NCBI GenBank assembly: GCA_017520675.1
Contig: JAFXFG010000031.1
Span: 574-64,573 of the forward strand
Reading direction: 5' to 3'
Source: Alphaproteobacteria bacterium
GTDB lineage: Bacteria; Pseudomonadota; Alphaproteobacteria; Rs-D84
Length of the DNA stretch: 64,000 bases
The translations under genes were made by a program, and so were the position numbers. This document shows, piece by piece, positions 1-44,028 of this stretch. Below the pieces are notes generated by a model. The model was not told the origin of the DNA, made no database searches, and saw only the letters and a list, made by a program, of their open reading frames with translations. Each line of letters opens with the position of its first letter. Positions within the stretch are counted from its first letter, which is position 1.

Positions 1-92
1 CGGACAAGCCCGTTTTCACCAAGTAAATTTGTTTGACCAATTACTTCGTCAATTGTGTTCGGACGCATTAAATCTGCAAGTGGACGTGTCAT
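1..92 (-). CDS. rarA: 5' end (N-terminus) of the recombination factor RarA/MgsA AAA ATPase; the gene continues beyond the window start
   Basis: Reverse complement of 1-92 translates to MTRPLADLMRPNTIDEVIGQTNLLGENGLV, matching the conserved RarA N-terminus (MRP..LDE.VGQ.HLLG). Confidence 0.55.
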   Translation of the reverse strand, partial: MTRPLADLMRPNTIDEVIGQTNLLGENGLV

Positions 93-162
93 TTTACGGT
101 GCTTTTATTTGTTGTTTATTTGTGTTATAATTATTGTATTAAATAAACAAGGAAAGCGCAAG

Positions 163-519
163 TTGGTAAATAAAAATTCTGATTTTACTTTGGCTGTGGC
201 AAATCTGGCCGCAGCAGCAATTGCAGCAAATCCAAAACTTACAATGGAAGAGGCTGTTCAACGTGCACGTGAAATTTTGCGGGGAACATCAATTACACAA
301 CAACAAATCGATGATTCTGTGCAAAATGATAAAATTCAATGTCTGGAAGATGGTACTTGGCATATAATGTTGCGTAGATATATTAAACGCAGATTTAATA
401 TGACACCACAGCAATATCGTGAAAAATGGGGATTGCCAAATGACTATCCTTTTGTGGCACCAGATTATGCAAAAAAACGTTCGAAAATAGCGAAGAAAAC
501 TGGATTGGGGAGAAAATAA
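163..519 (+). CDS. MucR/Ros-family transcriptional regulator with a degenerate zinc finger
   Basis: C-terminus QCLEDGTWHIMLRRYIKRRFNMTPQQYREKWGLPNDYPFVAPDYAKKRSKIAKKTGLG matches the Ros/MucR core, but C2H2 is reduced to a single Cys. A TTG start at 163 has an AAGGAAAG RBS; the ORF track starts in frame at 55. Confidence 0.6.
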   Translation: MVNKNSDFTLAVANLAAAAIAANPKLTMEEAVQRAREILRGTSITQQQIDDSVQNDKIQCLEDGTWHIMLRRYIKRRFNMTPQQYREKWGLPNDYPFVAPDYAKKRSKIAKKTGLGRK

Positions 520-520
520 A

Positions 521-2368
521 ATGAAACAAAATTCTACAAGACAAATGACGAATACCCAAAAGGCTGGTGATGCGGTGCGTATGGTGGCAGATGGGATAAA
601 AGATGCAAGAAAAAAATTGTCAAAATTAAGTCCAAAAAAACATTTTGAAAATGCCGGTAGGGTTTCTGGTGCTGTGTTGCTGTGGTTGATGGAATATACA
701 ATGCGCATTGCAAATGGGCTGGTGTTGGATAATTTCGCATTGCGTGCAATGGAACGCGGATTTAAAAATAAAAAGAAAGATGGATTCGCTAAAAGAAATC
801 CCGCCTTGGTATCGCATGCGCTGTACTATCTGATTCCATTGTTGGCATGGCTGGGGGTCGAAACCGTAGATTTTGCAAAAGAAAGAGTTCAAGAACGAAA
901 ACAGAAAGAAGAGGAGGAAGCACGAAAAAAAGCAATGTCCTTTGATAATTTTAAAATTAACCCAAATGTTTCGGATGAAGAGTGGGAAAAACAAATTGAT
1001 GCAATACAGCCATATGTAATCGCACATTTGTTCTTGACCGAGGGGTATGTGCGAGATTTGTACTATGATAATGGAACAAGTGGTACGAAAACAATAGGGG
1101 TAGGTTTTATTCTTGATGATGAAGTGCATCGTAAGTTTGCAAAAAAAATACTGGGACGACCAATAGTAAACGGTTTGAGTGTGTCTGTTGAAGAGGCTAG
1201 AATCTTGGCGGATGCATGGACGCGTGAAAAGATTTATCCAAAGATGAAAGAGGCTTTTAATGTGCCGATGGATGCAAAGTTGTTTATTACTTTGGTGGTG
1301 GCAGCATATAATGCAGGCGAAAGTACTTATTCGCTTAAAGGTAATTCAGGTATTCCTGTGCGTGATGCAGTTAATGCTGGAAAAACAATAGAAGAAATAA
1401 TGAATGTTTTTGTTCGGCAGTATGGGAAAGTACGCGGTACACAATGGGGCGGAATGTCAAATAAGTATTCTGTGTGCGCGTTGTATGCATTAGGGGATAT
1501 TTCTGATGATGTTATTTTAAACTGTGTGGCAGAAGCGCCGTATGAAATAAATGTTATATTAGAGCAAGATTCGGCATATTTATCGGTCTATAACCCTAAA
1601 ACAATGAATGAAGGAAATTTGCTGATTTATGACGGAGAAGAAAAAAAAGCAAGGCCTGTTGGTGTGGTTAGAATACCTAATATAGAAGAGGTTTTACAGA
1701 CACCACAGTATAGAAAAACAAAAGGAACAGAACAATTAAAGATACGTGATTATTTGATGGAACAGGAAGTAAATACAATTATGGCAGGAGAAATTTTTGA
1801 AGGCTCAACAATTGATTATTTCACAGCCCAACAGTTGGCAAATTCTGTGAAGTATGAGGTGTCTGATTCTGACAAAATTAATGAAGAAGGTGAAGAACTT
1901 TATCATAAGGAACAATATAAAGAAGCAATACAAAAATTTGAAGAAGCATTGAATGTAAATCCTGAAAATTACATTGTTTATAGTAATATATCTTTGGCTT
2001 ATTATAAAATGGGTGAACCCAAAAAAGGCGCGCGTGTAATAGAAAAGTTTATAAAATCTGAATACTTTGACAATGCGCCAGATGTAAATAAGGGCTATGT
2101 TTATTATAATTTGGCCTTGTGTTATGAAAAAATTGGTGATTCGAAAAGTAAAAGAAAGCAGAAATTTTATAAAGAGGCTAATAATGCAATCGAAAGGGCG
2201 CAGGAATATTCAGGAAACAGTTATGATGATTTAAAAAATAGAATAAATAAAAAACTGACAGATGAGGGTAAAAAAATTGCTTTTAATTCTGGAATTCAGC
2301 AAATGCGTCAGAAAAATGCAAAAAAAGATATATTGCTGTACGGTAAAGAAACAACATTTAATGCCTAA
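521..2368 (+). CDS. 615-aa Lys-rich protein with a central GH24 phage-type lysozyme-like domain and C-terminal TPR repeats
   Basis: LTEGYVRDLYYDNGTSGTKTIGVGF aligns with the P22/lambda/T4 lysozyme catalytic E...D...T-IGxGH block. The C-terminus has TPR-like repeats (AIQKFEEALNVNPENYIVYSNISLAYYKMGE; YYNLALCYEKIGD). The ATG lies 1 nt after the mucR-like stop. Confidence 0.55.
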   Translation: MKQNSTRQMTNTQKAGDAVRMVADGIKDARKKLSKLSPKKHFENAGRVSGAVLLWLMEYTMRIANGLVLDNFALRAMERGFKNKKKDGFAKRNPALVSHALYYLIPLLAWLGVETVDFAKERVQERKQKEEEEARKKAMSFDNFKINPNVSDEEWEKQIDAIQPYVIAHLFLTEGYVRDLYYDNGTSGTKTIGVGFILDDEVHRKFAKKILGRPIVNGLSVSVEEARILADAWTREKIYPKMKEAFNVPMDAKLFITLVVAAYNAGESTYSLKGNSGIPVRDAVNAGKTIEEIMNVFVRQYGKVRGTQWGGMSNKYSVCALYALGDISDDVILNCVAEAPYEINVILEQDSAYLSVYNPKTMNEGNLLIYDGEEKKARPVGVVRIPNIEEVLQTPQYRKTKGTEQLKIRDYLMEQEVNTIMAGEIFEGSTIDYFTAQQLANSVKYEVSDSDKINEEGEELYHKEQYKEAIQKFEEALNVNPENYIVYSNISLAYYKMGEPKKGARVIEKFIKSEYFDNAPDVNKGYVYYNLALCYEKIGDSKSKRKQKFYKEANNAIERAQEYSGNSYDDLKNRINKKLTDEGKKIAFNSGIQQMRQKNAKKDILLYGKETTFNA

Positions 2369-2385
2369 ATGATAAAGGGGAATTT

Positions 2386-4383
2386 ATGAAAGTCTTGGTC
2401 GATGTGCATGATAAACGTTGGAATAAATTTAAAATAGATTTTGATGAAATTGCAAATGCAGTTGTCGGAAAAAAATATGAAAATTCCGAAGTGTCTGTGA
2501 TATTGACTAATGATAAAGAAATACAGCAAATCAATAAGCAATACAGAAATATCGATAAACCAACAAATGTATTGTCGTTTGAACTGGGGGACGATATTTT
2601 GCTGGGGGATATTTTTATTTCAATTGATACTGTACAGAGAGAGGCAAATCTAGAAAAGATAACAGTTGTTGAACATACGGCGCATATGTTGGTGCATGGG
2701 GTGTTGCACTTGTTGGGATACGACCATATCAAAGATGATGAAGCAGAGATTATGGAAGAAAAAGAAACAAAAATTTTAAAAAAATTGGGTATAAAAAATC
2801 CATATGCCATTGATGATGAGTGGCAATGTGATTCTGCGGAATGTTGTCCGTGGGGTGGTGTTGTCGCGTGGATTAAAAAACTTAAAATAAAAGAAAATGG
2901 GGTTTGGCAATATTTCCTATACGCATTGTTTGGTGGGGTTGCTTCATTTGGCTTTGCGCCGTTCTATTGTTGGTGGTTGGCTGTACTGGGGATTGGTGGT
3001 GCGTATTGGTTGACAGTCAAACAAAAACAAAAGTGTGGATTTTGGCGTGCTTGGTTGCGTGTATCACCGTTTGGTGCAGTTTATGCAATATCTATGTTTT
3101 GGTGGACTTTGCATTCAATTTATGTTGTGCCAGAATTGGCAAATCAATTTGCTGTTTGGACAATCCCAGGTGTGATTGGATTAGGAATTGCAGGTGCGTT
3201 TATATTTGTATGGCCATTTGTTGTAATTTCCTGTGTGCGCAGAAATCCTGCGTATAGCGCGATTTTATTCGCGGCTGTTTGGGTGTTGGTGTTGTGGGGG
3301 CGCGAGTGGATGTTTACAGGGTTTCCATGGAATCCAATTGCAAATATATCTTTGAATTTTCCGATGTTGGCTAATTCTATGTCTTTGTGGGGCGCGTTGG
3401 GGTTGACATTTGTAATTGTTGGTGGAATTGCAACCATAGTTGAGGTTATGCGAAAGCCAAAGTCAAAGGTTGTGTGGTGGGGATTGTTGGTATTTGTGTT
3501 GTTGGGGGCTGTGGGAATGTTGTGGGGGCGGTATAATATGCAGTTGGCAACAGTGGGTGAAAGCAATAATCATAAATTAATTCGAATCGTGCAACCTGCG
3601 TTAAATCAAGCACAAAAGGCAACACATAGCAGAGAGCAGGCAATAATAAATGCAGAAGATAATATGCGGGTCTTGTTCGAATTGGCGTCCGTTGATGAAC
3701 GACCTGATTTAATTGTTTTTCCTGAAACATCATATCCTTTTACGGTTTTGAAAGGGGATATAATGCCTTTGTCACAGGCGTTGGGCACAGATGTTATTGT
3801 CGGTGCAAATTTCTTGGATAATGGCAAGGTTTATAATGCAATGCTGTTCGCAGATAGATATGGTCAAATAAATCATATATACAGCAAGTCGCATTTGGTG
3901 CCGTTTGGTGAATATAGTCCATTGGGGATTTTGCCAAGTCCTGTAAATTTATCAGCAGGTCAGGGGGCAGAATTAGTCAATGTAAATGATTTGTTGGTTG
4001 CACCTGCGATATGCTATGAAATCATCTTTTCTGATTCTGTGATTCCAGATGGCAAAAAAACACCAAGTGCAATTGTGAATATTACCAATGATAATTGGTT
4101 TGGTAATACCCCAGGTACTTATCAACATCTGGATATGGTGCGCAGATATGCAATCGAATCTGGGGTGCCGGTGGTGCGTGCAAATTATTCGGGTATTAGT
4201 GCGTTTGTCTTGTCTGATGGTAATGTGTTGTCGCAATTGATGATTGGTGATTCTGGGGTTCTGGATGGCTTTGTGTGGGGTGCACATAATACACCATACA
4301 GAATGCTGGGGATGAATTTTTGGATGATTGTGATATTGGTATTTTCTGGATTGTGTTTGTTTGTGTTGCAACGAAGAGATTAA
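2386..4383 (+). CDS. ybeY-lnt: Fusion protein: YbeY endoribonuclease domain (N-terminal ~150 aa) joined to apolipoprotein N-acyltransferase Lnt
   Basis: The N-terminus carries the HGVLHLLGYDH YbeY zinc motif. It continues without a stop into Lnt-type transmembrane helices and a CN-hydrolase domain (ICYEIIFSD, NDNWFG). This is one uninterrupted 665-codon ORF. Confidence 0.75.
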   Translation: MKVLVDVHDKRWNKFKIDFDEIANAVVGKKYENSEVSVILTNDKEIQQINKQYRNIDKPTNVLSFELGDDILLGDIFISIDTVQREANLEKITVVEHTAHMLVHGVLHLLGYDHIKDDEAEIMEEKETKILKKLGIKNPYAIDDEWQCDSAECCPWGGVVAWIKKLKIKENGVWQYFLYALFGGVASFGFAPFYCWWLAVLGIGGAYWLTVKQKQKCGFWRAWLRVSPFGAVYAISMFWWTLHSIYVVPELANQFAVWTIPGVIGLGIAGAFIFVWPFVVISCVRRNPAYSAILFAAVWVLVLWGREWMFTGFPWNPIANISLNFPMLANSMSLWGALGLTFVIVGGIATIVEVMRKPKSKVVWWGLLVFVLLGAVGMLWGRYNMQLATVGESNNHKLIRIVQPALNQAQKATHSREQAIINAEDNMRVLFELASVDERPDLIVFPETSYPFTVLKGDIMPLSQALGTDVIVGANFLDNGKVYNAMLFADRYGQINHIYSKSHLVPFGEYSPLGILPSPVNLSAGQGAELVNVNDLLVAPAICYEIIFSDSVIPDGKKTPSAIVNITNDNWFGNTPGTYQHLDMVRRYAIESGVPVVRANYSGISAFVLSDGNVLSQLMIGDSGVLDGFVWGAHNTPYRMLGMNFWMIVILVFSGLCLFVLQRRD

Positions 4384-4598
4384 AACTGTCCAAGTTGTAG
4401 AATAATTTGCTTTAATATCCATACGCGGACAGCAGATGAAAGATTTACGTCTGGGGTGCGTGTGGAATCAAGTTCGCTGATAATTGATGCAACTGATTTG
4501 CCTTGGCGTTTTGATAGCACGTGCAGGGCATCAATGAATTCTGGTTCAAGTGTGATGCTGGTCTGGTGGCCTGATAATGAAACAGATAATTTTTTCAT
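4380..4598 (-). CDS. Ribbon-helix-helix protein of the RHH_4 family (PF13467-like)
   Basis: KKLSVSLSGHQTSITLEPEFIDALHVLSKRQGKSVASIISELDS matches the RHH_4 pattern (RSVSL.GH.TSITLE..FW.AL.EIA...G.S...LI.EID). It is the last gene of the coupled 5-gene operon. Confidence 0.6.
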   Translation of the reverse strand: MKKLSVSLSGHQTSITLEPEFIDALHVLSKRQGKSVASIISELDSTRTPDVNLSSAVRVWILKQIILQLGQF

Positions 4599-4601
4599 AG
4601 G

Positions 4602-5039
4602 TTATAATTTTCCCCCCATTAAACAGTCGCTGATTGCTTTGTGTGGGTCGGTATATTTCTTTACCGCTTTTAATGTTAGGTTATCCAGCATATAGCATGT
4701 GCCAAATGCGTCATAGGCAAACCAAAATAAATCATTGCGACCAAATATTGTTTTGCCAGATGTCTTGCCAAGTGGGCCAATGTCGTGATTAACTTTGATA
4801 ATACTGGGAATAACAAAGGGTGGTGTGTATGAAACTTCGTTTGGACCAAAAATATAACCAGAACCAATGTTTAAGCCACCTGTGATTGTGTATATATGAA
4901 TCAAAAAGTCGGGTAACATAGCAAAGCGACCACGTTGCAGTGCAGCATTTGTTAATGATAAACTTTGTGTCGGTACAGGAGGTGCAAAAATTGCGCCGCG
5001 CGCCTTGATTGCAGATAAAAAATTAGTGCATTCTGTCAT
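4602..5039 (-). CDS. Hypothetical protein (operon gene 4 of 5)
   Basis: ORF with ATG at 5039, 1 nt after the upstream stop. I recognise no domain (MTECTNFLSAIKARGAIFAPP...GPLGKTSGKTIFG...). Confidence 0.45.
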   Translation of the reverse strand: MTECTNFLSAIKARGAIFAPPVPTQSLSLTNAALQRGRFAMLPDFLIHIYTITGGLNIGSGYIFGPNEVSYTPPFVIPSIIKVNHDIGPLGKTSGKTIFGRNDLFWFAYDAFGTCYMLDNLTLKAVKKYTDPHKAISDCLMGGKL

Positions 5040-5040
5040 T

Positions 5041-5550
5041 TTAAAAATCCCTGTTGCTGACAATCTGAGAAGCGATTGTTTCTGTTAGTCTGTCTTCGGT
5101 ACCGTTGCCACCAGGTGAACTGGTTTCAGATTGTGTGGGTAGGTATATCTTTTTGGCAGGGTTTGGTAACCATATAGTTTCGTTACCGCTTTGTTGTATT
5201 ATAAATCTGTCAAGGGTGTACGAGTGCGGAAATGTGCGACATAAGAACATATTGTCTAGGTCAAGTTTGCCACCCCATGATAGCGGAATGCGAAAACGAA
5301 ATGACATATTTGCAGGAAGTGATTTGCCCATAATTAAATTCATAAATTCGTCTTGGGTTAAATTCATAAAGGCAAGTGTTTCAACAGAATCGGTTAATGA
5401 TGTCATAAATTGTCTGCAAAGGCGCTTGTAAATACTGAACCAATCGGCAGAAACATTCGTATAGACAGGACGGATGGAAATAAGTGGCATATTTTTTATA
5501 CCAAGTTCTTCTAAAAGTTTTTCTGCGGTGTTTTGGTTCAGTTGCATCAA
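5041..5550 (-). CDS. Hypothetical protein (operon gene 3 of 5) with a possible SUKH/SMI1-KNR4-like N-terminus
   Basis: ORF whose start overlaps the upstream stop (ATGA at 5547-5550). The N-terminus AEKLLEELGIKNMPL weakly resembles the SUKH immunity-protein N-terminus; the resemblance is tentative. Confidence 0.45.
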   Translation of the reverse strand: MMQLNQNTAEKLLEELGIKNMPLISIRPVYTNVSADWFSIYKRLCRQFMTSLTDSVETLAFMNLTQDEFMNLIMGKSLPANMSFRFRIPLSWGGKLDLDNMFLCRTFPHSYTLDRFIIQQSGNETIWLPNPAKKIYLPTQSETSSPGGNGTEDRLTETIASQIVSNRDF

Positions 5551-5984
5551 AGTCGTCCTAGGTATTCAATAACAGTTGATATGTACGAAGAAAATGCTTC
5601 GAAATTTTCCATCTCGTCCGGTGGAAGCGGAGTGTTGCGATGGGCATTTATATAGTCGCGTAAAGTTTCAGTGTTGTCAAATACTAAAATATCTGATGTG
5701 GGTTGTGGTGGTGTGCTGTTTAATATAAATCCATTGATTGTTATTTCTATGTCTTCGAGTGTGTCAGAAAATACTTGTTGTATGGTTTCTATGCGTTTTG
5801 ATAGTTCGCTGGGCTGACAGTCTGTTGCGCCAATCCAGATTGTTTCATTGCTGCCAATTGCGAATAAGATAGTTTGAAGCCCCTTTATCTTGGGTGTTTC
5901 TTTGGGTTCATAGCCAGCATCTTTGAATATGTTTGTTATTTCTGTTTTGTCCCATTTTGATGTTTCGGTGGGTGCAGAAATCAT
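5547..5984 (-). CDS. Hypothetical protein (operon gene 2 of 5)
   Basis: ORF with an ATGA overlap to the upstream gene (5981-5984). No recognisable domain. Confidence 0.45.
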   Translation of the reverse strand: MISAPTETSKWDKTEITNIFKDAGYEPKETPKIKGLQTILFAIGSNETIWIGATDCQPSELSKRIETIQQVFSDTLEDIEITINGFILNSTPPQPTSDILVFDNTETLRDYINAHRNTPLPPDEMENFEAFSSYISTVIEYLGRL

Positions 5985-6469
5985 GTGCTGCCAGTTGTAA
6001 TAACAGGCGCGGTTATGGGGGCGACGGATTGTTCCGTTGGGACAGGTAATGTAAGGCCGGTGTTTAAACGCTTAGGCCGTTCTAAGGTGGAAAAGCCCGT
6101 CATAGGTGATGGATGTTGCGTGGTTGGTTGTTCTTGTTTTGCTGGTATGGGGGCGGGGTGGTTTTTTGTTGGTGATTCTGTTGTGGTTCTTGTTATAGTA
6201 GGGGCAGAAGTGTGCAATTTTATTTTGCGGTAGCGCGGTCTGTGTAATATGTATAATCCCAATATTAGTACAAATACTGAGGCAATTAATGATGTGTAGA
6301 ATATGGGACTGATTGGTTGTTGTGATGCCTGCATATATGCAAGATAATCCCAGTTGGCCTTGGAAAATATGTTAAAGCCGAATCTGGTGTTGAACCAAAA
6401 GCATGTACCAAGTAATGCAATAATTAGCCATAAAAAGGTTAGTAAAATTTTTTCAAATTTGTTCTTCAT
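5981..6469 (-). CDS. Small membrane protein with 2 TM helices and a Pro/Thr-rich C-terminal tail (operon gene 1 of 5)
   Basis: Internal ATG at 6469 (MKNKFEKILLTFLWLIIALLG...). It has hydrophobic helices and a PT-rich tail. The longer ORF-track extension up to 6679 lacks support. Confidence 0.45.
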   Translation of the reverse strand: MKNKFEKILLTFLWLIIALLGTCFWFNTRFGFNIFSKANWDYLAYMQASQQPISPIFYTSLIASVFVLILGLYILHRPRYRKIKLHTSAPTITRTTTESPTKNHPAPIPAKQEQPTTQHPSPMTGFSTLERPKRLNTGLTLPVPTEQSVAPITAPVITTGST

Positions 6470-6513
6470 TATGTTTTTAATTGTATCATATTTATGATAA
6501 ACTAAAAAGCATA

Positions 6514-7188
6514 ATGATAGAAAAAAATGTATTGTTTGATGGTTCGCCAAATCGATTGGGAATGTGGTGTGGCGCGGATAAAGAAAATGCTGAGTTGGCA
6601 CGTGTGGCCGAAGTAATTGTCGAAGAATCTTTGTCAATTGTGTCTGTGGTGCCGTCTGTTGTATCGATAATTTGGCCATGGCTTGAAAAGGTTAGTACTA
6701 GGATTTTTGCACGATTTTATTTGCCAAATAAAAAGATTGATGAAGCATCTGTGTCTGATGTAGTGCAGAAAATTAATGCGACTTTTAAGCAGGGGGCAAA
6801 TGGTGCGCAGGTTTTTTTGTCTGTTTCGGATTTGAAAAAATTTGTTGACTATATTCGTGTTATAAGAGATGACTTGTTCTTTGACAAGGAATTTTCTGTT
6901 GGCCTCGATTTAAGTGATGTTGGACCGTTCGATTGGAATGATTTATACGAGGAAGCAAGAAAATTGAATGTTAATTCTGTGTTATTTGCGCTTGTAAAAG
7001 ATATGGGGAATAAATCTGATTTTGTTGGGCGAATTTATGCGATGCTTAATGCGTGGAATAATGATAATGAATTTGAATTGCATTTTGCACTTGGGCCGGA
7101 TTCTATGCGTATAGAGCAGGTTGTGCGTTTGGTTGAACAATTACAACCGCAATTACTTGATAGAATAAAATTCCTTGTTAATTTTTAA
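6514..7188 (+). CDS. Hypothetical protein with a possible DeoC/LacD-aldolase-like TIM-barrel fold
   Basis: ORF divergent from the 5-gene operon. It has a weak DeoC-like pattern (AEVIVEESLSIVSVVPSVVSIIWPWL). The start was chosen at MIEKN. Confidence 0.35.
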   Translation: MIEKNVLFDGSPNRLGMWCGADKENAELARVAEVIVEESLSIVSVVPSVVSIIWPWLEKVSTRIFARFYLPNKKIDEASVSDVVQKINATFKQGANGAQVFLSVSDLKKFVDYIRVIRDDLFFDKEFSVGLDLSDVGPFDWNDLYEEARKLNVNSVLFALVKDMGNKSDFVGRIYAMLNAWNNDNEFELHFALGPDSMRIEQVVRLVEQLQPQLLDRIKFLVNF

Positions 7189-7798
7189 TAATTAAATATT
7201 TTGGTGCATCTGTGCCGGCCTTGTTCTTGTGCTGATAACGGGTTTGGATTATTTCCAGATTTGCAATTGTTGCGCATAAATTTGCAGAAGTGGCTTGTTC
7301 AAGAATCCAGTCAAAATATTCCCAATGGTCTGTGCCAATAATTATTTCGCCATTTGGCGCCAAATGTCTTGATAATAATGTTAAAAAATCAGATGATAAT
7401 AAACGGCGCTTAATGTGGCGTGCCTTGGGCCAAGGGTCGGGGTGCAGTACCCAAATTTGTGAAAATTTCGAATCGTTTTTACGCAGAAAATCACGAACAT
7501 CGTCCGCCCATATACGGATGTTTTTATATTCGTTCATAACTTGATTGGTCTGTTCATCGGTTATTGCAGACAGAAGGCTGGCCACACCATTCATAAATGG
7601 TTCTGCGCCAATTATTGTTTTGTCTGGGTTGTTGCGCGCCAAATCACGTACGTGTTCGCCGGCCCCAAATCCAATTTCAAGAATATCCCCAGTTGCAGGA
7701 CACAGGGTTGGCAAAACATTGTCAATCAATGATTGTTGACGGGCGGATAATTTCTTGCCATGACGGCGACCAAATGTTCTTATTTCTTGTTTTTCCAT
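7178..7798 (-). CDS. trmB: tRNA (guanine-N7)-methyltransferase
   Basis: SAM-binding ILEIGFGAGEH plus the HPDPWPKARH..RRL TrmB signature. Confidence 0.85.
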   Translation of the reverse strand: MEKQEIRTFGRRHGKKLSARQQSLIDNVLPTLCPATGDILEIGFGAGEHVRDLARNNPDKTIIGAEPFMNGVASLLSAITDEQTNQVMNEYKNIRIWADDVRDFLRKNDSKFSQIWVLHPDPWPKARHIKRRLLSSDFLTLLSRHLAPNGEIIIGTDHWEYFDWILEQATSANLCATIANLEIIQTRYQHKNKAGTDAPKYLIIKN

Positions 7799-7845
7799 AT
7801 TTTTAGTATAGAATTGAGTTTGTTAAAAAACAAGGATTATATGCA

Positions 7846-8409
7846 ATGCAAGAATTTCCAAAACGAATCGATTGTGGGGACTTTGAACTGGTTAAACCGG
7901 ATGTGAAGTTTGATGTCGCGATTGAATTGTTTAATATGATTGATAAAAATCGTGATAAATTGACACCTTGGCTGGGGTGGGTGGATTATGTGAAAACACC
8001 TGAAGATGAGTTCGCTTTTGTTGAATCTGTGGCAAAAAGTGAAACAGGAAAGTACTTTATCGTTGTCGATTCTAGTATAGTTGGTATGTTGGGATTTGTG
8101 CAGGAAGAACATAGGTCAAAAAAGACTGTTGAGATAGGTTATTGGCTGGATAAAGATATGAACGGTCGTGGTATTATGACACGTGCAGTAAAACAGTTGA
8201 TGAAGTTGGCTTTTGAAATTTGGAATGCGAATCGTGTGGAAATTCAGGCCGCAGTCGAAAATATTAAATCGCGTGCAATTCCAGAACGCCTGGGGTTCAA
8301 TCAAGATGGGATTTTACGTCAACGTGAAATTGTTCGCGAAGGTGAAATTCAAGATGTTGTTATGTATTCAAAATTAAAAGCAGAATGGGAAAAGGAAATA
8401 GTAAAATGA
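7846..8409 (+). CDS. GNAT-family N-acetyltransferase (RimJ/RimL-like)
   Basis: GNAT core VGMLGF..EIGYWLDKDMNGRGIMTRAV..LGFNQDGILR. Confidence 0.7.
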   Translation: MQEFPKRIDCGDFELVKPDVKFDVAIELFNMIDKNRDKLTPWLGWVDYVKTPEDEFAFVESVAKSETGKYFIVVDSSIVGMLGFVQEEHRSKKTVEIGYWLDKDMNGRGIMTRAVKQLMKLAFEIWNANRVEIQAAVENIKSRAIPERLGFNQDGILRQREIVREGEIQDVVMYSKLKAEWEKEIVK

Positions 8410-9983
8410 GAAATGGTTTATCAAAAGATTTAATCGCGCGTGTATTGGGCGGTGCACCAAAATATACAATTGCAGAGTTGGAAGAAAAATTCCCAGCACG
8501 TAATCTGCCTGAGGGTGCAATGGTAACACGATTTGCCCCAAGCCCAACAGGCTTTATGCATATTGGTAATTTATATAGTGTTTTGATTGATTATAAATTT
8601 GCCCAGCAGTCGGGGGGGGTGTTTATGTTGCGTATCGAAGATACGGATACAAAACGCGAAGTGCAGGGCGCAGTTGATGTAGTAAAAAGTGCAATGCATA
8701 ATTTTGGCTTTGTGTACAATAATGATGATGTTTATGGGCCTTATTATCAATCTCAGCGTAAGGATATTTATCATTCTGTTGCTGCGCATTTGTTGGAAAC
8801 TGGGTATGCATATCCATGCTTTTTGACAGCAGAAGATATGGAAGATATTCGTGAAAAACAAAAGTCGGCAGGATTTGCAACAGGAATTTATGGCGAATTT
8901 GCACGTGATAGAGATTTAACAGAAGAGGATGTTATTGCGTATTTGGATAAGGGGTTGGTGCCATCAATTCGCTTGTATTCAATGGGAAATCCTGAACAGC
9001 GCATCTTTTGCAAGGATGCTGTGCGTGGTTCAATCGGGTTCCCAGAAAGTAACGAGGATATCGTTTTGATAAAATCAAATGATGGTTTGCCAACTTATCA
9101 TTTTGCACATTTGTGTGATGACCACTTTATGCATACAACACATGTTGTTCGTGGCGAAGAATGGTTGCCGTCCTTGCCGTTGCATTATCAATTGTTCCGT
9201 ATGATGCAGTGGACACCACCAATTTATATTCATACAGCAACACTCGATAAAATTGATGCGGAATCTGGTAAGCAAAGAAAGTTGTCCAAACGTAAAGATC
9301 CAGAGGCAAATGTTGCGTTCTTTTTGCAAGAAGGTTGGCCAGTTGATGCTGTAATTGAATATCTGGGTAATATTTTGGCATCAGGATACGAAGAAGCAAA
9401 AATGAAAGGGCAGGTTAAATCTTTCTGGGATTATGAAATGAAACCTAAAAAAATCCCTATGTCGGGCGCATTGTTTGATATGAAAAAACTGGAATGGTGG
9501 GCGAAAGAGTTTATCGGTTCGTTGCCTGTGCCAGAATTGGTTAGTCGTGTCGTTACATGGGCAAATGAATATGGAACAGATACAAACAAAATGCAGGTCG
9601 AAGATGTTAAATACCTGACGGGCGTTTTGGGTATTGAACGCGATAATCCAAAGCGTGTGCGCAAAGACTTTATTACTTGGTCCCAGACACTGGAAAATGT
9701 TGCGTTCTTTTGGGATGAATTGTTTGTGCCGAATACTGAATATGAATATAATCGGGATGCGTTGCGTGAATTCTTGGCAACATATAATCCGACAGATGAT
9801 AAAGATACTTGGTGGGCAAAAATTGTCGCGGTTGCTGAAAAAACGGGTATTAAAAATGGCGATGTGGCAATGAATTTGCGTGTGGCTTTATCAGGTCGTA
9901 CAAATACACCAGATTTGTATTCAATTATGACTGTTATGGGCGGTGAACGCGTTATGAATAGAATAAAAGGAGTTATAAAATGA
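8406..9983 (+). CDS. gltX: Glutamyl-tRNA synthetase (class I)
   Basis: HIGH motif PSPTGFMHIGN and a KMSKS-like KLSKRK. An ATGA overlap with the GNAT stop suggests a start at 8406; the canonical GluRS N-terminus MVTRFAPSPTG begins at 8520. Confidence 0.85.
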   Translation: MRNGLSKDLIARVLGGAPKYTIAELEEKFPARNLPEGAMVTRFAPSPTGFMHIGNLYSVLIDYKFAQQSGGVFMLRIEDTDTKREVQGAVDVVKSAMHNFGFVYNNDDVYGPYYQSQRKDIYHSVAAHLLETGYAYPCFLTAEDMEDIREKQKSAGFATGIYGEFARDRDLTEEDVIAYLDKGLVPSIRLYSMGNPEQRIFCKDAVRGSIGFPESNEDIVLIKSNDGLPTYHFAHLCDDHFMHTTHVVRGEEWLPSLPLHYQLFRMMQWTPPIYIHTATLDKIDAESGKQRKLSKRKDPEANVAFFLQEGWPVDAVIEYLGNILASGYEEAKMKGQVKSFWDYEMKPKKIPMSGALFDMKKLEWWAKEFIGSLPVPELVSRVVTWANEYGTDTNKMQVEDVKYLTGVLGIERDNPKRVRKDFITWSQTLENVAFFWDELFVPNTEYEYNRDALREFLATYNPTDDKDTWWAKIVAVAEKTGIKNGDVAMNLRVALSGRTNTPDLYSIMTVMGGERVMNRIKGVIK

Positions 9984-10717
9984 TGCAGTCAAAACGGGCG
10001 CGTGTGCGTGCAGTAAAAAAAGATGAGCATGGTTCACAGTTATTAAAGGTCTTGCGTGCAACAGGGTTGTTTCGCTGGGAAAAACCAAGTACACATGCAG
10101 AAGAAGTGGTAAATATCTTGACCCATGGTATTGGTATTGGATTAGCAATTGCTGCGCTGACTTTGTTGGTGGTGTTTGCAGGAATCAAAGGCGACCCATG
10201 GGCAATTGTTTCGTGTGCTATTTTCGGTGTAACTATGATTACATTGTATTTTGGGTCAACAATGTGCCACGCAACAATTGGAAAAAAACACGAATGCTTT
10301 TTTGAAGTATGGGATAGTGTTGCAATATATGCCTTGATTGCAGGTACATATACACCGTTTTTGTTGGTGAATTTGCGTGGCTGGATTGGCTGGACTGTGT
10401 TCGGTATTCTGTGGGCGATTGTGTTGTTTGGGTCGTATATGAAAATAAAAAATCCAAAGCGTCAGCCAAAGTGGATGGTGGCATTGTATCTGATTATGGG
10501 GTGGACGTTGCTGTTTATTTTGCCTGCGATGATTCGTAATATTCCGATTCGCGGATTGTGGTTTATCTTGGCGGGTGGGTTGTCTTATACGATTGGTGTA
10601 ATTTTCTATTTGTGGCGCAGAATGAAATTCTCGCACGCAATATGGCACTTGTTCGTTATTGGGGGCAGTGTGTGCTTCTTTTTTGCGGTGTTGTTCGGCA
10701 GTATCTTGGATTTGTAA
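9980..10717 (+). CDS. Hemolysin III / PAQR family membrane protein
   Basis: Seven TM segments and the HlyIII motifs NILTHGIG....HATIGKKHE...IAGTYTPF. Confidence 0.8.
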   Translation: MMQSKRARVRAVKKDEHGSQLLKVLRATGLFRWEKPSTHAEEVVNILTHGIGIGLAIAALTLLVVFAGIKGDPWAIVSCAIFGVTMITLYFGSTMCHATIGKKHECFFEVWDSVAIYALIAGTYTPFLLVNLRGWIGWTVFGILWAIVLFGSYMKIKNPKRQPKWMVALYLIMGWTLLFILPAMIRNIPIRGLWFILAGGLSYTIGVIFYLWRRMKFSHAIWHLFVIGGSVCFFFAVLFGSILDL

Positions 10718-10733
10718 TTAAAGGACTTGGTTT

Positions 10734-11081
10734 ATGCCGTATGAACGTGATTCGAAAAAAAGTGTTAGTCCAACTGTTGTTGAACGGGCATCAAATTTGC
10801 CAGATGATTTGTGCTGCGATGGATGCGCAGAAAAATGTCAGATGTCTATACAGTTGGAAATTAATAATAACAAATATAATAAAATAGAAAAAAATCAGAT
10901 TATATATGCAGAACCTGTTATGTTTGTGGGTAATAAAAAATTGCCAGATGTAGAATATTTGTCTGCAAATACGCAAAAGGCAGGTGATGGTGTAAAAATG
11001 GAATTGTTTTTTGCAGATGTTGCATATCGTTATGCGTTGGGGATGTGCAGAAAAATATGCAAGCATAGTAAATTTAGATAA
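10734..11081 (+). CDS. Small Cys-rich protein, paralog A (unknown family)
   Basis: Carries DLCCDGCAEKCQMS and AYRYALGMCRKICKHS. RBS AAGGAC. Paralogous to the next gene. Confidence 0.5.
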   Translation: MPYERDSKKSVSPTVVERASNLPDDLCCDGCAEKCQMSIQLEINNNKYNKIEKNQIIYAEPVMFVGNKKLPDVEYLSANTQKAGDGVKMELFFADVAYRYALGMCRKICKHSKFR

Positions 11082-11097
11082 AAGAAAGGGGTTAGAT

Positions 11098-11433
11098 ATG
11101 GCGTATGATTGTGATTATGTTAAAAGAGCAGGGCATATTGAATTTGCGGACGAGTTGACACCAGATTTATGTTGTGATGGGTGTGCGGAACATTGTCAGA
11201 TTTCTTTGCGTATGGTGGTTGATGGAAAGTATTCAATAAAAAATGGAAATCAAACAATGTTTATAAAGCCAGCAATGTATGCAGGTGAAAAAAAGTTGGG
11301 TAATGAATTCTTGTATGAAAGAATCCAAAAGGGCCCAGATGGTATAAGGGTGGATTTTGATTATGCAGACAAGGCGTATTTATATGCGCTGGGGATGTGC
11401 AGAAAAACATGTAAAAATAGTCGCGTGAAATAA
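11098..11433 (+). CDS. Small Cys-rich protein, paralog B
   Basis: Carries DLCCDGCAEHCQIS and AYLYALGMCRKTCKNS. RBS AAGGGG before the ATG at 11098. Followed by a terminator. Confidence 0.5.
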   Translation: MAYDCDYVKRAGHIEFADELTPDLCCDGCAEHCQISLRMVVDGKYSIKNGNQTMFIKPAMYAGEKKLGNEFLYERIQKGPDGIRVDFDYADKAYLYALGMCRKTCKNSRVK

Positions 11434-11461
11434 TTTTTATTCCCAGTTGATAAAAAAAATC

Positions 11462-11490
11462 CCCATATGGGGATTTTTTGGGAAAAATGA
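11462..11490. terminator. Bidirectional rho-independent terminator between convergent genes
   Basis: Hairpin ATCCCCATATGGGGAT flanked by A and T runs. Confidence 0.7.
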
Positions 11491-11503
11491 AAGTTTTTTG
11501 TTC

Positions 11504-11935
11504 TTAATTTTTACGGTTTTCGTATTCTTCTTGTTCTTCAACCGTCATGGTCGCAAGTGGACGCGCAATCATACGTTGAATCCCAATTTCATCACCAGAT
11601 ACAACACTGTAACCAAATGTGCCGTTGTCAATACGGTCAAGGGCAGCGTTTATCTTTTGTAATAGTTTGTTGTTGCGTTCAGAAATGCGCAAATCCATCG
11701 TGATGTCTTGGTTGTATGTCGCACTGTCCGATTCGTCGCCGGCACCAACTGCAGCTGTCTTTTCAGCCAAACGAACCGCGTTTAGTACTTCGTCATGTTC
11801 GCTAAGCAGTTCTGCCTTTTGCGCGGTTAATACATTATAGAAATATGCCAGTTGTGTCGGACACATATAGGGTTCTGACTTCTTTGGTTTGTAATTTGCA
11901 GGTATTTCAATCGTTTTGTAATTTTCAACAGACAT
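11504..11935 (-). CDS. dksA: DksA-family RNA polymerase-binding regulator without the Cys4 zinc finger
   Basis: DksA coiled coil with DxxDxA, and a C-terminus GTFGYSVVSGDEIGIQRMIARPLATM in which all four Cys are replaced. Confidence 0.75.
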   Translation of the reverse strand: MSVENYKTIEIPANYKPKKSEPYMCPTQLAYFYNVLTAQKAELLSEHDEVLNAVRLAEKTAAVGAGDESDSATYNQDITMDLRISERNNKLLQKINAALDRIDNGTFGYSVVSGDEIGIQRMIARPLATMTVEEQEEYENRKN

Positions 11936-11938
11936 TTT

Positions 11939-12262
11939 TTATCCCTTTAGTTCTTCTATCCAGGCAAGTAGTGTTTCTTGGTCCATAAGACCTGTACGAG
12001 CCTCAACCAATTCGCCGTCTTTGAATGCAAGCACAGATGGTATGCTGCGAATGCCATATTTTGCAGGTGTCTGGCGATTCGGTTCGTTGATTTCAAATTT
12101 TACAAATTTTACATCGCTGACTGTATCTATATCAGATGTCGATTCAAAAATAGGACCAAACATACGACATGGACCACACCAAGATGCCCAGAAATCAACC
12201 AATGTGATGCCACTGCCAATCATTGTGTCAATGTTTGTATCGTTCGCGTGTAATATTGCCAT
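11939..12262 (-). CDS. trxA: Thioredoxin
   Basis: WASWCGPCRMFGP active site. Confidence 0.9.
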   Translation of the reverse strand: MAILHANDTNIDTMIGSGITLVDFWASWCGPCRMFGPIFESTSDIDTVSDVKFVKFEINEPNRQTPAKYGIRSIPSVLAFKDGELVEARTGLMDQETLLAWIEELKG

Positions 12263-12340
12263 GTTTTTTCTCCTTTATGTAATAGTTGATATTCGAAAAG
12301 AGTGTATTATAATCGTTTTAAAATGCAAGAGAAATCATAA

Positions 12341-13441
12341 ATGAATAAAATCATATACTTAGATGCGGCCGCATCATACCAAAAATGCGAATCTGTAATT
12401 CAAACTGAAATCGATTTCTTGACACGAAATTATGCAAATGCAGGACGGGGAATTTGCGCACGTGCGGTGGCAGTCGATGATATGGTGCAACGATGCAGGG
12501 CAAAAGTCGCAGGATTTATGAATGCGCGTACAGACCAAATTGTCTTTACAGCAGGTACAACAGATGCAATGAATATGCTGGCTAATATGATTCCAATGTC
12601 TGCAAGAACTAAGTTGTTGGTGGCTGATATTGACCACCATAGTGCGCGATTGCCCTTTGATCAAAAAGTTAGGGCGCGGGCAGGGGTAATTAATGTTTGC
12701 CCATTGGATGATAAATTGAATATCGATGTCGATAATGTTCCATATGCAGATGTCTTTGTTATAACGGCGATGTCTAATGTGTTGGGAATGCCACAAAAGG
12801 TTGCAGATATTATAAGGGCGGCACGTCAAAAAAATCCAAATGTGGTAACTGTTGTTGATGCAGCGCAATATGTCGTGCATGAAAAGATTGATGTTAGGGC
12901 ATGGAATTGTGATTTCGTTTGTTGGTCTGGACACAAGATTGGCGCAGATACAGGTGTTGGGGTGTTGTATATTAAAAATCCCGAATCGTATATGCCTGTG
13001 AAGTTTGGCGGCGGGATGGTTAATAAAATTGTTGGTGATAAAATTACTTGGAATAATCCGCCTGATGTTTTTGAAGCAGGAACCCTGCCGTTGACGCAGA
13101 TTGCAGGATTGGCACAGGCAATCGATGAATTAAATCAAAATCGACCAAATATGGAATTGATAAAATATGCGTTTGATGAATTGCAGAAAATCCAAAATGT
13201 AAAAATATTGTCAGAACGTGATGCGTGTGTGTTGACTTTTGTGGTTGATGCAATGCATGTGTTGGATTTTGGCGCGTTGATGGGCGCGCGTGATGTTTGC
13301 CTGCGTGTGGGAAATATGTGTGCGTCTTGGGTGTTCGCGCGATTAAATCTGGATGGGGCAATCAGATTGTCAGTCGGTGCATATAATACAATTGATGATA
13401 TAAAGTATTTTGTTAAATCTGTAAAAGAGATTGTAAAATGA
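12341..13441 (+). CDS. sufS: Cysteine desulfurase-like class V aminotransferase (SufS/CsdA-like, short form)
   Basis: PLP lysine SGHKIGADTGVGVLY. Adjacent to the sufT-like and sufE genes. Confidence 0.7.
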   Translation: MNKIIYLDAAASYQKCESVIQTEIDFLTRNYANAGRGICARAVAVDDMVQRCRAKVAGFMNARTDQIVFTAGTTDAMNMLANMIPMSARTKLLVADIDHHSARLPFDQKVRARAGVINVCPLDDKLNIDVDNVPYADVFVITAMSNVLGMPQKVADIIRAARQKNPNVVTVVDAAQYVVHEKIDVRAWNCDFVCWSGHKIGADTGVGVLYIKNPESYMPVKFGGGMVNKIVGDKITWNNPPDVFEAGTLPLTQIAGLAQAIDELNQNRPNMELIKYAFDELQKIQNVKILSERDACVLTFVVDAMHVLDFGALMGARDVCLRVGNMCASWVFARLNLDGAIRLSVGAYNTIDDIKYFVKSVKEIVK

Positions 13442-13752
13442 GTATTGTGAAAAATGATATTATTAATGCGCTAAAGAAAATATATGACCCAGAAATTCCT
13501 GTTAATATCTGGGATATGGGGTTGATTTATGATATTGATATCTTAGATGATGGTGTTGTTATAAAAATGACTTTTACCAGTCCAACATGCCCAATGATGG
13601 AAGAATTGTTGGCGCAGGTAAAGGATGCGGTACAACAGGTTGCAGGTGAAAAAACTGTGCGGGTGGATTTGGTATGGAACCCACCATGGGATTTATCAAA
13701 AATGTCTGATACAGCGCGCGTGGAATTGGATTTGACCAATCAAGGATGGTAG
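13438..13752 (+). CDS. sufT: DUF59/SufT-family Fe-S assembly protein
   Basis: YDPEIPVNIWDMGLIY...TSPTCP signature. The start overlaps the sufS stop. Confidence 0.75.
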   Translation: MSIVKNDIINALKKIYDPEIPVNIWDMGLIYDIDILDDGVVIKMTFTSPTCPMMEELLAQVKDAVQQVAGEKTVRVDLVWNPPWDLSKMSDTARVELDLTNQGW

Positions 13753-14120
13753 AAAATATGGTTTATAGAGATATAAAGGCAATTTTGGAAATAACAGAAA
13801 ATCCTGTTGAAAAATTAGAAATCTTGATGGATTTTGGAAAAAAACTGGAACAAATACCAGATGGTGCAGATTGTACGGAGATAGTTGGTTGTTCTTCATT
13901 TGTTCAGATTTGTCGCAAGGATAATAAATTCTATGCAACAGCCGATTCGGCAATTGTGCGTGGAATTGTTGCAGTGCTGTTGTCAATGGTTGATGGGATG
14001 TCTGTGCAGAATATAAAAAATCTAAATATAGAAGAAGAGTTTAATTCGTTGAATTTAAATCTGGGGGCGGCACGATTAAATGGTGTTGGTTCTATGATTC
14101 GTTTTTTTAAAAATTTGTGA
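13746..14120 (+). CDS. sufE: Cysteine desulfuration protein SufE
   Basis: VGCSSFVQI motif with the SufE active-site Cys. Confidence 0.75.
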   Translation: MVENMVYRDIKAILEITENPVEKLEILMDFGKKLEQIPDGADCTEIVGCSSFVQICRKDNKFYATADSAIVRGIVAVLLSMVDGMSVQNIKNLNIEEEFNSLNLNLGAARLNGVGSMIRFFKNL

Positions 14121-40750: not shown

Positions 40751-41959
40751 ATGTTCCGTAAGATATTGATTTTTGCGATGTTTGCAACTGCCGCGGGGTA
40801 TTGTTTCGCATCTGATGATTTGCAACAAATTGTAACCTCAGAGGTTTTTTATGATAACGAAGTTGTCCCGTACGAGGATACTGTTGTTGTGCAGGAACAG
40901 ATTCCAACATGGCCTTTGATTGGGTCAGAGGCGGATGTTGAGGTCGGTTGTGAGGGAAATCCAAAGGTTAAACGACAGGATGATAATATTCGCATTGTGT
41001 CAAAGGTTGGTGATGATTTAGTTGTTGAAAATAACTTTAATATTGGGGCACGTGGTGAATTTACAGGCTGGTCTGGTGGTGCGAATATGTTGCATGGTAC
41101 GCAGATTCCTGTTGGTTTTGATGATGAGTGTTTGTCTAATACGGAAATGCCATTATTGCATCGCGAGGTTTTAGAAGACGATGGTGGAAATGTTTTGGCT
41201 GTGTCGCGCAGTGGACGCAAGGTGTGTGGTAGTGCAGATGCTTATAACGCGTTTTCGCTAAGGAATAATATGAATTTTAATGCGAAAAAAGGAACTGATG
41301 TTAAAAAAGCGGTTTTGGATAATGGAAACGCAGTTGTTTCTTCTGATGGAAGTAATGTAGTTATTTCTATGGCTGATGGTAATGTGGTTGTGTCTGAAAG
41401 TGGTGCGGTTTCTGCAAATGGAACAAGTCAAATTACACAGGATGGTGGTGATGTTGTCGCAACATCTGCAGATGGCAGTGTTACTGTATCCGTTGCAGAA
41501 AATGGTAGAATTGTTGTTACTTCCTATGAAAGTGAGGTTGTGGTAGAAGAGGGGACTATTGTTGCGGTTAGTGGTAATAGCGAGGTTTTAGAAGAAGAAA
41601 CAGAGAATTATGCAAGTGCGTCTGATGCCTTGGCAAATGTGCCAGAGGAAGAAATTGCAGTGGATGTTTCTGCAGATGCTGAGGCGCCAAAAGTATTGAA
41701 AGATCAGGTGCGTTCTTGGGTTGTTGTAAATGGGCAGACATTAAGAGAGGTCTTGCAATCGTGGGCGGATAAAGAAGGTTGGGATTTGGTTTGGACAACC
41801 GCGCGCGAATATCCAATTGAGGCAAGCGCAGTATTTAAAGGACGCTTTGTTGATGTAGCGTCGGCTTTGGTTCGTAATTTTGGACGTGCAACACCTGTAC
41901 CATATGCAAAGTTCTATAAAGGGAATAGGGTTTTGGTGGTTTCTACGGTTGATGAATAG
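40751..41959 (+). CDS. Secreted protein with a beta-rich repeat region and a TcpQ-like C-terminal domain (secretin-associated)
   Basis: Signal peptide MFRKILIFAMFATAAGYCFA and a VV/SG-rich repeat segment. The C-terminus WVVVNGQTLREVLQSWADKEGWDLVWTTAREYPIEASAVFKGRFVDVASALVRNF fits the TcpQ C-terminal/PFL_4695-type pattern. Confidence 0.5.
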   Translation: MFRKILIFAMFATAAGYCFASDDLQQIVTSEVFYDNEVVPYEDTVVVQEQIPTWPLIGSEADVEVGCEGNPKVKRQDDNIRIVSKVGDDLVVENNFNIGARGEFTGWSGGANMLHGTQIPVGFDDECLSNTEMPLLHREVLEDDGGNVLAVSRSGRKVCGSADAYNAFSLRNNMNFNAKKGTDVKKAVLDNGNAVVSSDGSNVVISMADGNVVVSESGAVSANGTSQITQDGGDVVATSADGSVTVSVAENGRIVVTSYESEVVVEEGTIVAVSGNSEVLEEETENYASASDALANVPEEEIAVDVSADAEAPKVLKDQVRSWVVVNGQTLREVLQSWADKEGWDLVWTTAREYPIEASAVFKGRFVDVASALVRNFGRATPVPYAKFYKGNRVLVVSTVDE

Positions 41960-41989
41960 TGATGGGGATGTCTGCTAAGGAGATATATT

Positions 41990-43618: not shown

Positions 43619-43642
43619 ATAAAAGAAAGGAGGGCATATAAG

Positions 43643-43993: not shown

Positions 43994-43997
43994 TTAA

Positions 43998-44028
43998 GTG
44001 CGCGCGGATAATGCGCGCTTTTTTTGTT
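43998..44028 (+). terminator. Rho-independent terminator
   Basis: GCGCGCGGATAATGCGCGC followed by TTTTTTT. Confidence 0.75.

Follow-up and report, generated by a model that had tools for sequence, protein, structure and literature searches.

The stretch analysed here, hereafter the window, comprises 64,000 nucleotides of contig JAFXFG010000031.1 from an alphaproteobacterium of the GTDB lineage Rs-D84, and the system under study is a compact block of minus-strand genes, here labelled A to D, that lies near its left end between a ybeY-lnt fusion and trmB (Table 1). The genomes of Rs-D84/Enterousia are reduced to <1 Mb and ~850-900 genes, and these bacteria probably depend on partner cells (PMC12306168). 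An earlier note on this DNA had described the block as a translationally coupled operon of five open reading frames (ORFs); all five ORFs were found where that note placed them, and ORF1 and ORF2 together were identified as gene A, with ORF3, ORF4 and ORF5 being genes B, C and D, respectively. To place the block in a comparative context, B relatives were located by tblastn in 189 species genomes, from which 80 species-level loci were fetched, and six metagenome contigs (L001 to L006) that are 99-99.96% identical to the window were aligned with it; structure models of A and B were obtained with AlphaFold2.

Table 1. Features of the A-B-C-D locus and its flanks (window coordinates; aa, amino acids; nt, nucleotides).
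Feature	Coordinates	Strand	Remarks
ybeY-lnt fusion	2386-4383	plus	YbeY (endoribonuclease) and Lnt (apolipoprotein N-acyltransferase) in a single 665-aa ORF
Gene D	4380..4598	minus	72 aa; RHH_4 ribbon-helix-helix protein, presumed DNA-binding regulator
Gene C	4602..5039	minus	145 aa; predicted SUKH superfamily member, YrhA family
Gene B	5041..5547	minus	168 aa; start ATG overlaps the A stop (TGATG)
Gene A	5547..6469	minus	307 aa in all relatives; split in the window into ORF1 (6469-5981) and ORF2 (5984-5547)
1-nt deletion site (missing C)	5985..5986	minus	From the alignment with L001-L006; makes the TGA/ATG 'ATGA' junction inside A
Extended -10 element TGATACAAT for A-B-C-D	6480..6488	minus	Ends 10 nt before the A ATG; putative promoter element
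Palindrome TATCATA-AA-TATGATA	6484..6499	none	Centre of the 44-nt divergent intergenic region 6470-6513
Mirror-image extended -10 element TGATAAACT for unk235	6495..6503	plus	Ends 10 nt before ATG 6514
Divergent neighbour unk235	6514..7188	plus	224 aa from ATG 6514; 44-nt promoter region common to it and the operon

The boundary between ORF1 and ORF2 proved to lie within a single gene. All six near-identical contigs carry an extra C near window position ~5986 (GGCAGCACCATGA versus GGCAGCA-CATGA in the window) that restores an uninterrupted 307-aa reading frame, and the tblastn survey yielded one A gene of ~300 aa in each of the 80 other species. Therefore, the 'ATGA overlap' that had been read as a coupling signal is a frameshift site inside a gene, and the operon holds four genes rather than five. 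This deletion is the sole indel over 15,547 aligned bases between the window and the closest contig, L003, and may represent either a true strain-specific lesion or a lone assembly error; programmed frameshifting was considered as well and rejected, as the frame is unbroken in every other genome. The other junctions are as tight as the earlier note had stated, with ORF2 and ORF3 joined by TGATG, and 1-nt and 3-nt gaps at the ORF3/ORF4 and ORF4/ORF5 junctions, respectively. The 1-nt overlap of the A stop with the B start codon recurs in 75 of the 80 loci, and the median gaps over the 80 species are 15 nt between B and C and 3 nt between C and D.

With a frameshift in A and no functional annotation for any member, the five ORFs might be regarded as chance ORFs or as a decaying pseudogene cluster. 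This reading is refuted by the homologues, the synteny and the ratios of nonsynonymous to synonymous substitution rates (dN/dS), and we give it practically no weight. A, B and C have 150-410 homologues each, hundreds of them full-length and none annotated, which keep constant lengths and come from metagenome-assembled genomes (MAGs) of gut and rumen Alphaproteobacteria labelled 'Candidatus Enterousia'; the pairwise dN/dS of A to D (0.05-0.24) is far under 1; the AlphaFold2 models are confident; and a decaying cluster is hardly compatible with a single indel in 15.5 kb against the closest contig.

The genomic position of the block is equally constant. In all 80 loci the order is gltX, a GNAT gene that is not always present, trmB, a divergent 224-aa gene, A-B-C-D and the convergent lnt-ybeY, so that both flanks named in the earlier note, ybeY-lnt and trmB, were recovered, with the divergent gene additionally lying between the block and trmB. 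The four genes thus travel as one block of fixed order, orientation and flanks, and the homology searches assigned them to no ordinary housekeeping pathway. Their dN/dS values compare with 0.11-0.31 for lnt, trmB and gltX, and the lowest ones among the operon genes belong to B (0.05-0.11). From a fixed locus in 80 species and selection at the level of housekeeping genes it follows that A-B-C-D is a vertically inherited core operon rather than a mobile toxin or defence island. A placement in a defence island, which the earlier note had proposed to check, or in a mobile element was likewise not borne out: the same chromosomal position was occupied in 80 of 80 genomes, no mobile-element genes were found near the operon, and the PADLOC-DB models matched none of A, B, C and D, giving for the 224-aa neighbour only a chance-level hit to BrxB (E 0.017).

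Direct scans of the five ORFs against Pfam, NCBIfam and PADLOC returned just an RHH_4 match and a weak YrhA match. The RHH_4 match confirmed the earlier assignment of the last ORF: D scores 70.5 bits against PF13467 (E 1.2e-19; threshold 25) and covers positions 2-66 of the 67 in the profile. Its nearest solved relative is 3kk4 (BP1543, uncharacterised; E 0.037), and a search of the literature on RHH_4/PF13467 found nothing relevant. The YrhA match belongs to C, and became much stronger at the level of the family: when the C family was broadened, 17 of its 18 members matched NCBIfam NF038335 (YrhA family; best E 9.1e-19), 7 of 33 members match SMI1_KNR4 and 3 of 33 match SUKH_6 in Pfam, and an hhalign comparison of the C profile with the YrhA protein of an IncHI2 plasmid gave a probability of 92.9% (E 3.7e-7). 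The only match of C among PDB sequences, a weak one, is the SUKH structure 2icg. By these profile comparisons C is a well-supported predicted member of the SUKH superfamily, whereas its equivalence to YrhA is not supported. The YrhA/SUKH profile matches and hhalign also relocate the SUKH/SMI1-like signal that the earlier note had seen on ORF3, as it belongs to ORF4, i.e. C.

Protein B, a standalone protein of 166-169 aa throughout the family, is built of a helical N-terminal part, a beta-beta-alpha core of the HNH/His-Me finger type at about residues 80-117, which shows the beta-beta-alpha-metal fold, and a conserved disordered tail, GGxGGN[AG]TEDRL. Its sequence link to known nucleases is distant. 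An exhaustive profile search of the B family collected just 69 relatives, among them P0401, which matches at ~30% identity the C-terminal third of a 353-aa 'HNH endonuclease' found on 446 plasmids, mostly IncHI2; the B profile scores 23.9 bits against this IncHI2 protein, and hhalign gave 80% probability (E 1.3e-5). Curated HNH profiles (PF01844 or related) had no match at E<=1 for B, 21 family members and 10 remote relatives, and the B-HNH link is only transitive because it runs through the IncHI2 protein, which itself scores 27.1 bits against PF01844. A Foldseek search of the PDB with the B model, of the kind proposed in the earlier note, gave no significant match, and the B profile versus PDB sequences was uninformative, with matches at chance level.

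Catalytic residues that such a core would need as a nuclease have been lost. Among 72 B sequences there is no invariant His, and the canonical catalytic His (the general base, at the end of beta-strand 1) is missing; the invariant residues are R84, R86, N99, C103 and D113, of which N99 may correspond to the conserved loop Asn of HNH nucleases, while H108 varies (Y, Q, I). R84 and F85 occupy the HH positions of the IncHI2 HNH protein, R84 aligns also to the conserved His of the relatives linked to a type IV coupling protein (T4CP) described below, and D113 stands where relatives have the helix His; R84 and D113 possibly form a salt bridge in place of the former metal site. His-Me fingers that lack the His are known as inactive DNA- or ligand-binding modules, such as Smad MH1 and the ENPP nuclease-like domain (PMC5714182); like B, they keep the core and have lost the catalytic His, and are retained under selection as binding modules, although their lineages and partners are unrelated to those of B. 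In every locus examined, C lies directly downstream of the HNH-fold gene B, and in every locus with a His-less B, D follows C.

A similar picture was obtained for protein A. Its residues 1-76 are modelled as an N-terminal hairpin of two transmembrane segments with a conserved loop helix (pLDDT 82 for the AlphaFold2 model), residues 77-170 form a disordered Pro/Thr/Gln-rich linker with a conserved RP(P/K)RLN motif, and residues 171-307 a confident C-terminal alpha/beta domain of the PD-(D/E)xK (NERD-like) fold, with the alpha-beta-beta-beta-alpha-beta order of restriction endonucleases. This domain has no conserved D/ExK in strands 2-3 and no catalytic D...(D/E)xK; its invariant residues are A204, G206, E209 and G214. 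The window A had no match in Pfam, distant A-like proteins stayed below the threshold of the NERD profile (16.1 and 19.9 bits versus 22.1), and the A profile met only chance-level matches among PDB sequences. NERD-like and HNH-like folds are both common in defence systems, and the T4CP-linked relatives combine an ATPase of the FtsK/HerA class with nuclease folds, which could favour an anti-phage or anti-plasmid function, in which membrane-bound NERD and HNH nucleases would be checked by a SUKH inhibitor under an RHH regulator. We consider this very improbable, since both nuclease motifs are degenerate, A to D remained without a PADLOC match, and the genes are universal in presence and position rather than patchy, at housekeeping-level conservation.

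The homology of B and C to an HNH/SUKH pair leads to toxin/immunity systems. The IncHI2 plasmid NC_021845.1 (locus L097, 151064-152641) encodes the 353-aa HNH endonuclease and a YrhA-family protein beside the trhH/TraG-N conjugal transfer genes, and this arrangement looks like a plasmid-borne toxin/immunity-type pair; homologues of the HNH part occur on 446 plasmids, 433 of them conjugative, with the YrhA neighbour checked only on NC_021845.1. Like the window, this pair (WP_000902297.1/WP_020833765.1, of the type of E. coli YhhZ-YrhA) has an HNH-domain gene followed by a YrhA-family SUKH gene, with homology to B and C at the sequence level. It differs in that the HNH protein is 353 aa long, has an intact HH...N...H and passes the Pfam HNH threshold, whereas B is a standalone protein of 168 aa in which the HH is replaced by R/F and the helix His by D113, and in that the plasmid pair is mobile, whereas the B-C pair is chromosomally fixed and joined to A and D. 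SUKH proteins are predicted immunity partners of HNH toxins in polymorphic toxin modules (Zhang, Iyer & Aravind 2011, PMC3113570), which share with the window an HNH-fold protein and a cytoplasmic SUKH protein, whose 1:1 binding would be expected by analogy. Differently from these modules, the operon has no secretion or trafficking domain, no polymorphism, no cassette arrays and no catalytic His, and is under strong purifying selection with universal vertical inheritance; the marks of polymorphic or contact-dependent toxins, i.e. fusion to trafficking domains, rapid diversification and island-like spread, were all absent from it. Type II toxin-antitoxin operons governed by an RHH regulator also resemble the window, in that a small RHH protein is tightly coupled to a protein of nuclease fold and the partner that binds it, but here D is the last gene, RHH_4 is no known antitoxin family, the typical patchy and mobile distribution is not seen, and catalytic residues are missing from the 'toxin'.

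A functioning toxin-immunity or toxin-antitoxin module, in which B would be a nuclease with unusual catalytic residues, C its neutraliser and D an RHH autoregulator, could draw on the homology to HNH-YrhA pairs and SUKH-associated nuclease toxins (PMC3113570), on RHH proteins being common toxin-antitoxin regulators and on the tight coupling of the genes. We nevertheless judge it improbable, as B has neither an invariant His nor a recognised His-Me catalytic set, and is the most constrained of the proteins, with none of the diversification typical of toxins and immunity proteins; the operon keeps one chromosomal position in 80 species with no mobile-element genes nearby, and has no N-terminal trafficking domain, orphan immunity genes or cassettes. 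Of the suggestion in the earlier note that the block is an uncharacterised toxin/immunity- or defence-like system, the part that stands is the homology of B and C to the HNH/SUKH(YrhA) pair; the missing catalytic residues of B and A, the fixed position, the slow evolution and the lack of a PADLOC match together make a working system of either kind unlikely. The operon thus resembles toxin/immunity systems by descent, not by current behaviour.

Outside Rs-D84, the module with a His-less B recurs as a block in other uncultured alphaproteobacterial lineages with differing neighbours (L087, L092/93, L096, L098 and L100). A-B-C-RHH_4 lies beside lnt-ybeY in L087 as well, the same four genes were found in L092/93, and L096, L098 and L100 have the four genes plus an extra upstream gene. 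In three distant lineages, arrays of 2-5 tandem, divergent genes (435-620 aa) are located upstream of the His-less module, i.e. in L096 (513-7396), L098 (1-5913) and L100 (3-3433), their paralogy being shown only inside L098 and between L098 and L096; in L088, two large proteins with prepilin-like N-termini occupy the place of such arrays.

A second group of relatives retains the histidines of B, in the motif ..H.K.P..GG...N....THP[YF]H..IH, and in all five such loci (L090, L091, L094, L095 and L099) B and a C-like gene lie directly downstream of a VirD4/TraG-type ATPase, the T4CP. An A-like gene is present upstream of VirD4 in four of the five, with two significant copies in L090, one plus a weak candidate in L091 and none in L095, and L099 carries the full set of RHH_4, A-like, VirD4, B and C in one operon that begins with RHH_4. 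The genes upstream of VirD4 in L090 and L091 were also considered as virB8-11, an identity that was ruled out: L090_352, L090_354 and L091_369 are significant A-like paralogues and L091_384 a weak candidate. These operons share homologues of A, B and C with the window, and of D in L099, and are its closest relatives among those with an additional component that can be recognised as an enzyme; they differ from it by a 705-784-aa ATPase and by a B that keeps its histidines (H..K.P, THP[YF]H..IH), often with MWDWS at the N-terminus and an extension rich in P/Q, where the window has no ATPase and a His-less B. They are surrounded by housekeeping genes and have no VirB apparatus in their vicinity, and our search of the literature on a coupling protein combined with NERD and HNH found no description of such an operon. 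No VirD4 homologue was detected in the operon or elsewhere in the 64-kb window, nor in the operon at any of the 80 Rs-D84 loci.

These loci point to another possibility, namely that A-B-C-D would serve the partner-dependent lifestyle as an accessory to a transfer apparatus whose genes lie elsewhere, either a T4CP/type IV secretion system or a type IV pilus-like machine; B would be a substrate or adaptor acting via its C-terminal tail, C a chaperone, A a membrane dock and D a regulator. Besides the B and C relatives directly behind VirD4 in five of five His-retaining loci and the A-like gene upstream in four, this possibility is favoured by the B tail motif GG..N.T.DR, kept in T4CP-linked and T4CP-less versions alike; by a secretin gene in the window at 41990-43618 on the plus strand (PF00263, E 2.4e-13); by type IV pilus-like genes adjoining the module in L096 and pseudopilin-like ones in L088; and by the proposal that Rs-D84 cells draw metabolites from partner cells (PMC12306168). 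Against it speak the absence of VirD4 from the operon and window, the housekeeping surroundings of the T4CP-linked loci without nearby VirB genes, and a B protein with no recognisable secretion domain, and on balance we regard such an accessory role as unlikely, though less so than an active toxin. The secretin gene itself lies in a same-strand run of ORFs (40751-48678), possibly type IV pilus- or type II secretion system (T2SS)-like, which is similar to the TcpQ-secretin-PilO-T2SSE genes of L096.

Comparison of the intergenic region in front of A over 73 species pointed to a conserved divergent promoter. TGnTAnAAT ends 8-10 nt before the A ATG in 73 of 73 species, TGnTAAA[CG]T precedes unk235 on the opposite strand in 72 of them, and the palindrome motif is present in 61. 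The 44-nt region is nearly invariant, though synonymous sites of the flanking genes are near saturation (dS 0.6-2.5); no Shine-Dalgarno sequence precedes A, and at the L087 locus TGCTATAAT lies 6 nt before the ATG. A generic sigma-70 scan that requires a -35 element found no promoter upstream of A, and the extended -10 element surfaced by the cross-species comparison only. These patterns predict two back-to-back extended -10 promoters that would produce leaderless or near-leaderless mRNAs; the palindrome may be no more than the two -10 regions back to back, or may also serve as an operator for a dimeric regulator, with D as the candidate.

The gene on the other side of this region, unk235, is adjacent and divergent in 80 of 80 Rs-D84 loci with a dN/dS of 0.07-0.23, and a homologue (27% identity, E 3e-17) adjoins the operon in L087, a distant MAG labelled 'Rickettsiales'. 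It had no match or detectable family in Pfam, NCBIfam and PDB sequences, and may be a fifth partner of the operon. In a goat-colon MAG (L008, 4354-5073) the unk235 homologue contains an in-frame stop, representing a pseudogene or an assembly error.

Taken together, we favour, at a probability of roughly 55%, the reading that A-B-C-D is a domesticated, catalytically dead derivative of a toxin/immunity-type module, vertically inherited as a core operon of the gut alphaproteobacterial order Rs-D84, whose products would form a membrane-tethered complex with D as regulator. The ancestor would have had an HNH-type protein with histidines and a YrhA/SUKH partner behind a VirD4-like ATPase, as in the five loci of other uncultured Alphaproteobacteria, of which four have an A-like gene and one an RHH_4 gene upstream; in the Rs-D84 lineage, the ATPase would have been dropped from the operon, the HNH positions of B replaced and the PD-(D/E)xK motif of A lost. 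B and C would then form a stable, non-toxic heterodimer, as a nuclease does with its immunity protein, which A would hold at the cytoplasmic face of the inner membrane, with contacts made through the dead-nuclease domain of A and/or the motifs RPPRLN of the A linker and GGxGGNATEDRL of the B tail. D would bind DNA as an RHH dimer, most simply as an autoregulator at the palindromic divergent promoter common to the operon and unk235. As for the cellular role, we guess at a scaffold associated with nucleic acids or with the envelope, the remnant of a machine linked to DNA or protein transfer.

Several observations weigh against this reading of a domesticated module. The window C itself scores only 18.3 bits (E 0.0017) against NF038335, for which the curated cut-off is 55, and the fold scores for B are modest. 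B could employ non-canonical chemistry, as R84, R86 and D113 are invariant; the His of the His-retaining relatives aligns one position off the canonical general base, so that even an 'ancestral' nuclease activity is presumed. The homology of A to the T4CP-linked A-like proteins is partly transitive: in hmmsearch with A, three of them scored 14.6-30.7 bits and a fourth candidate (L091_384) a non-significant 0.5 bits, and hhalign of the A profile with L094_404 failed to obtain the link, which therefore rests on hmmsearch, tblastn chains and the shared architecture. A is frameshifted in the window, and a true lesion would mean that this strain can live with a C-terminal domain that is not tethered. 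VirD4 may lie elsewhere in Rs-D84 genomes, the search having covered the 64-kb window. Finally, we infer the physical complex with its contacts, the membrane topology, the regulation by D and the cellular role from the features above.

Around the operon, some further features were observed. The ybeY-lnt fusion is kept in all Rs-D84 loci and in L087 (596 aa), and its stop overlaps by 4 nt with that of the convergent D. The gltX region (window 8385-9983 and 7846-8409; L001 4676-7702) is a local hotspot of divergence, with gltX of L001 showing 77% protein and 89% DNA identity and 32 gap openings between flanking genes at ~99%; the GNAT acetyltransferase gene beside gltX occurs in only some of the strains and species. 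GC skew over window positions 1-14000 is strongly positive (~+0.1 to +0.45) nearly throughout, across the minus-strand operon (4380-6469) and plus-strand genes alike, at a GC content of merely 30-45%, and points to an unusually strong strand asymmetry. On the plus strand, two tandem paralogous genes (10734-11081 and 11011-11433) encode small Cys-rich proteins with the motifs LxxDLCCDGCAExCQ and ALGMCRKxCKxS, and a gene at 521-2368 encodes a 615-aa protein with tetratricopeptide repeats and faint lysozyme-like matches, which adjoins a Ros/MucR-family regulator (55-519, plus strand) and is very variable across species (22-81% identity, often only partly alignable).

For annotation, what had appeared as two coupled genes is to be corrected to one frameshifted gene, and the comparison has exposed a family of T4CP-linked operons that may merit study itself. 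The operon is given a concrete ancestry, in that an HNH/SUKH pair of the toxin/immunity type, a membrane-bound NERD-like protein and an RHH protein are linked to a VirD4-like ATPase in relatives; catalytic residues were lost and the proteins kept, and this offers the testable hypothesis that a nuclease/immunity complex was exapted as a scaffold. In a wider and more tentative view, which we hold to be possible with the odds against it, RHH_4, the membrane NERD-like protein, the VirD4-like ATPase, the HNH-like protein and YrhA/SUKH would constitute an undescribed chromosomal system of uncultured, host- or gut-associated Alphaproteobacteria, outside conventional type IV secretion systems and conjugative elements, whose ATPase and both nuclease active sites would have been shed in several reduced-genome lineages, all Rs-D84 included, and which would persist there as a membrane-tethered complex that the cells cannot do without, perhaps to handle DNA or proteins that pass between them and a partner cell. 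If true, this wider view would supply a documented case of a conflict-type module, of toxin/immunity or DNA-transfer origin, that has turned into a core gene set in a minimal genome. As the operon is present at the same locus in every examined species and is constrained like genes for a tRNA synthetase and lipoprotein maturation, it is likely important for the partner-dependent lifestyle of these bacteria.

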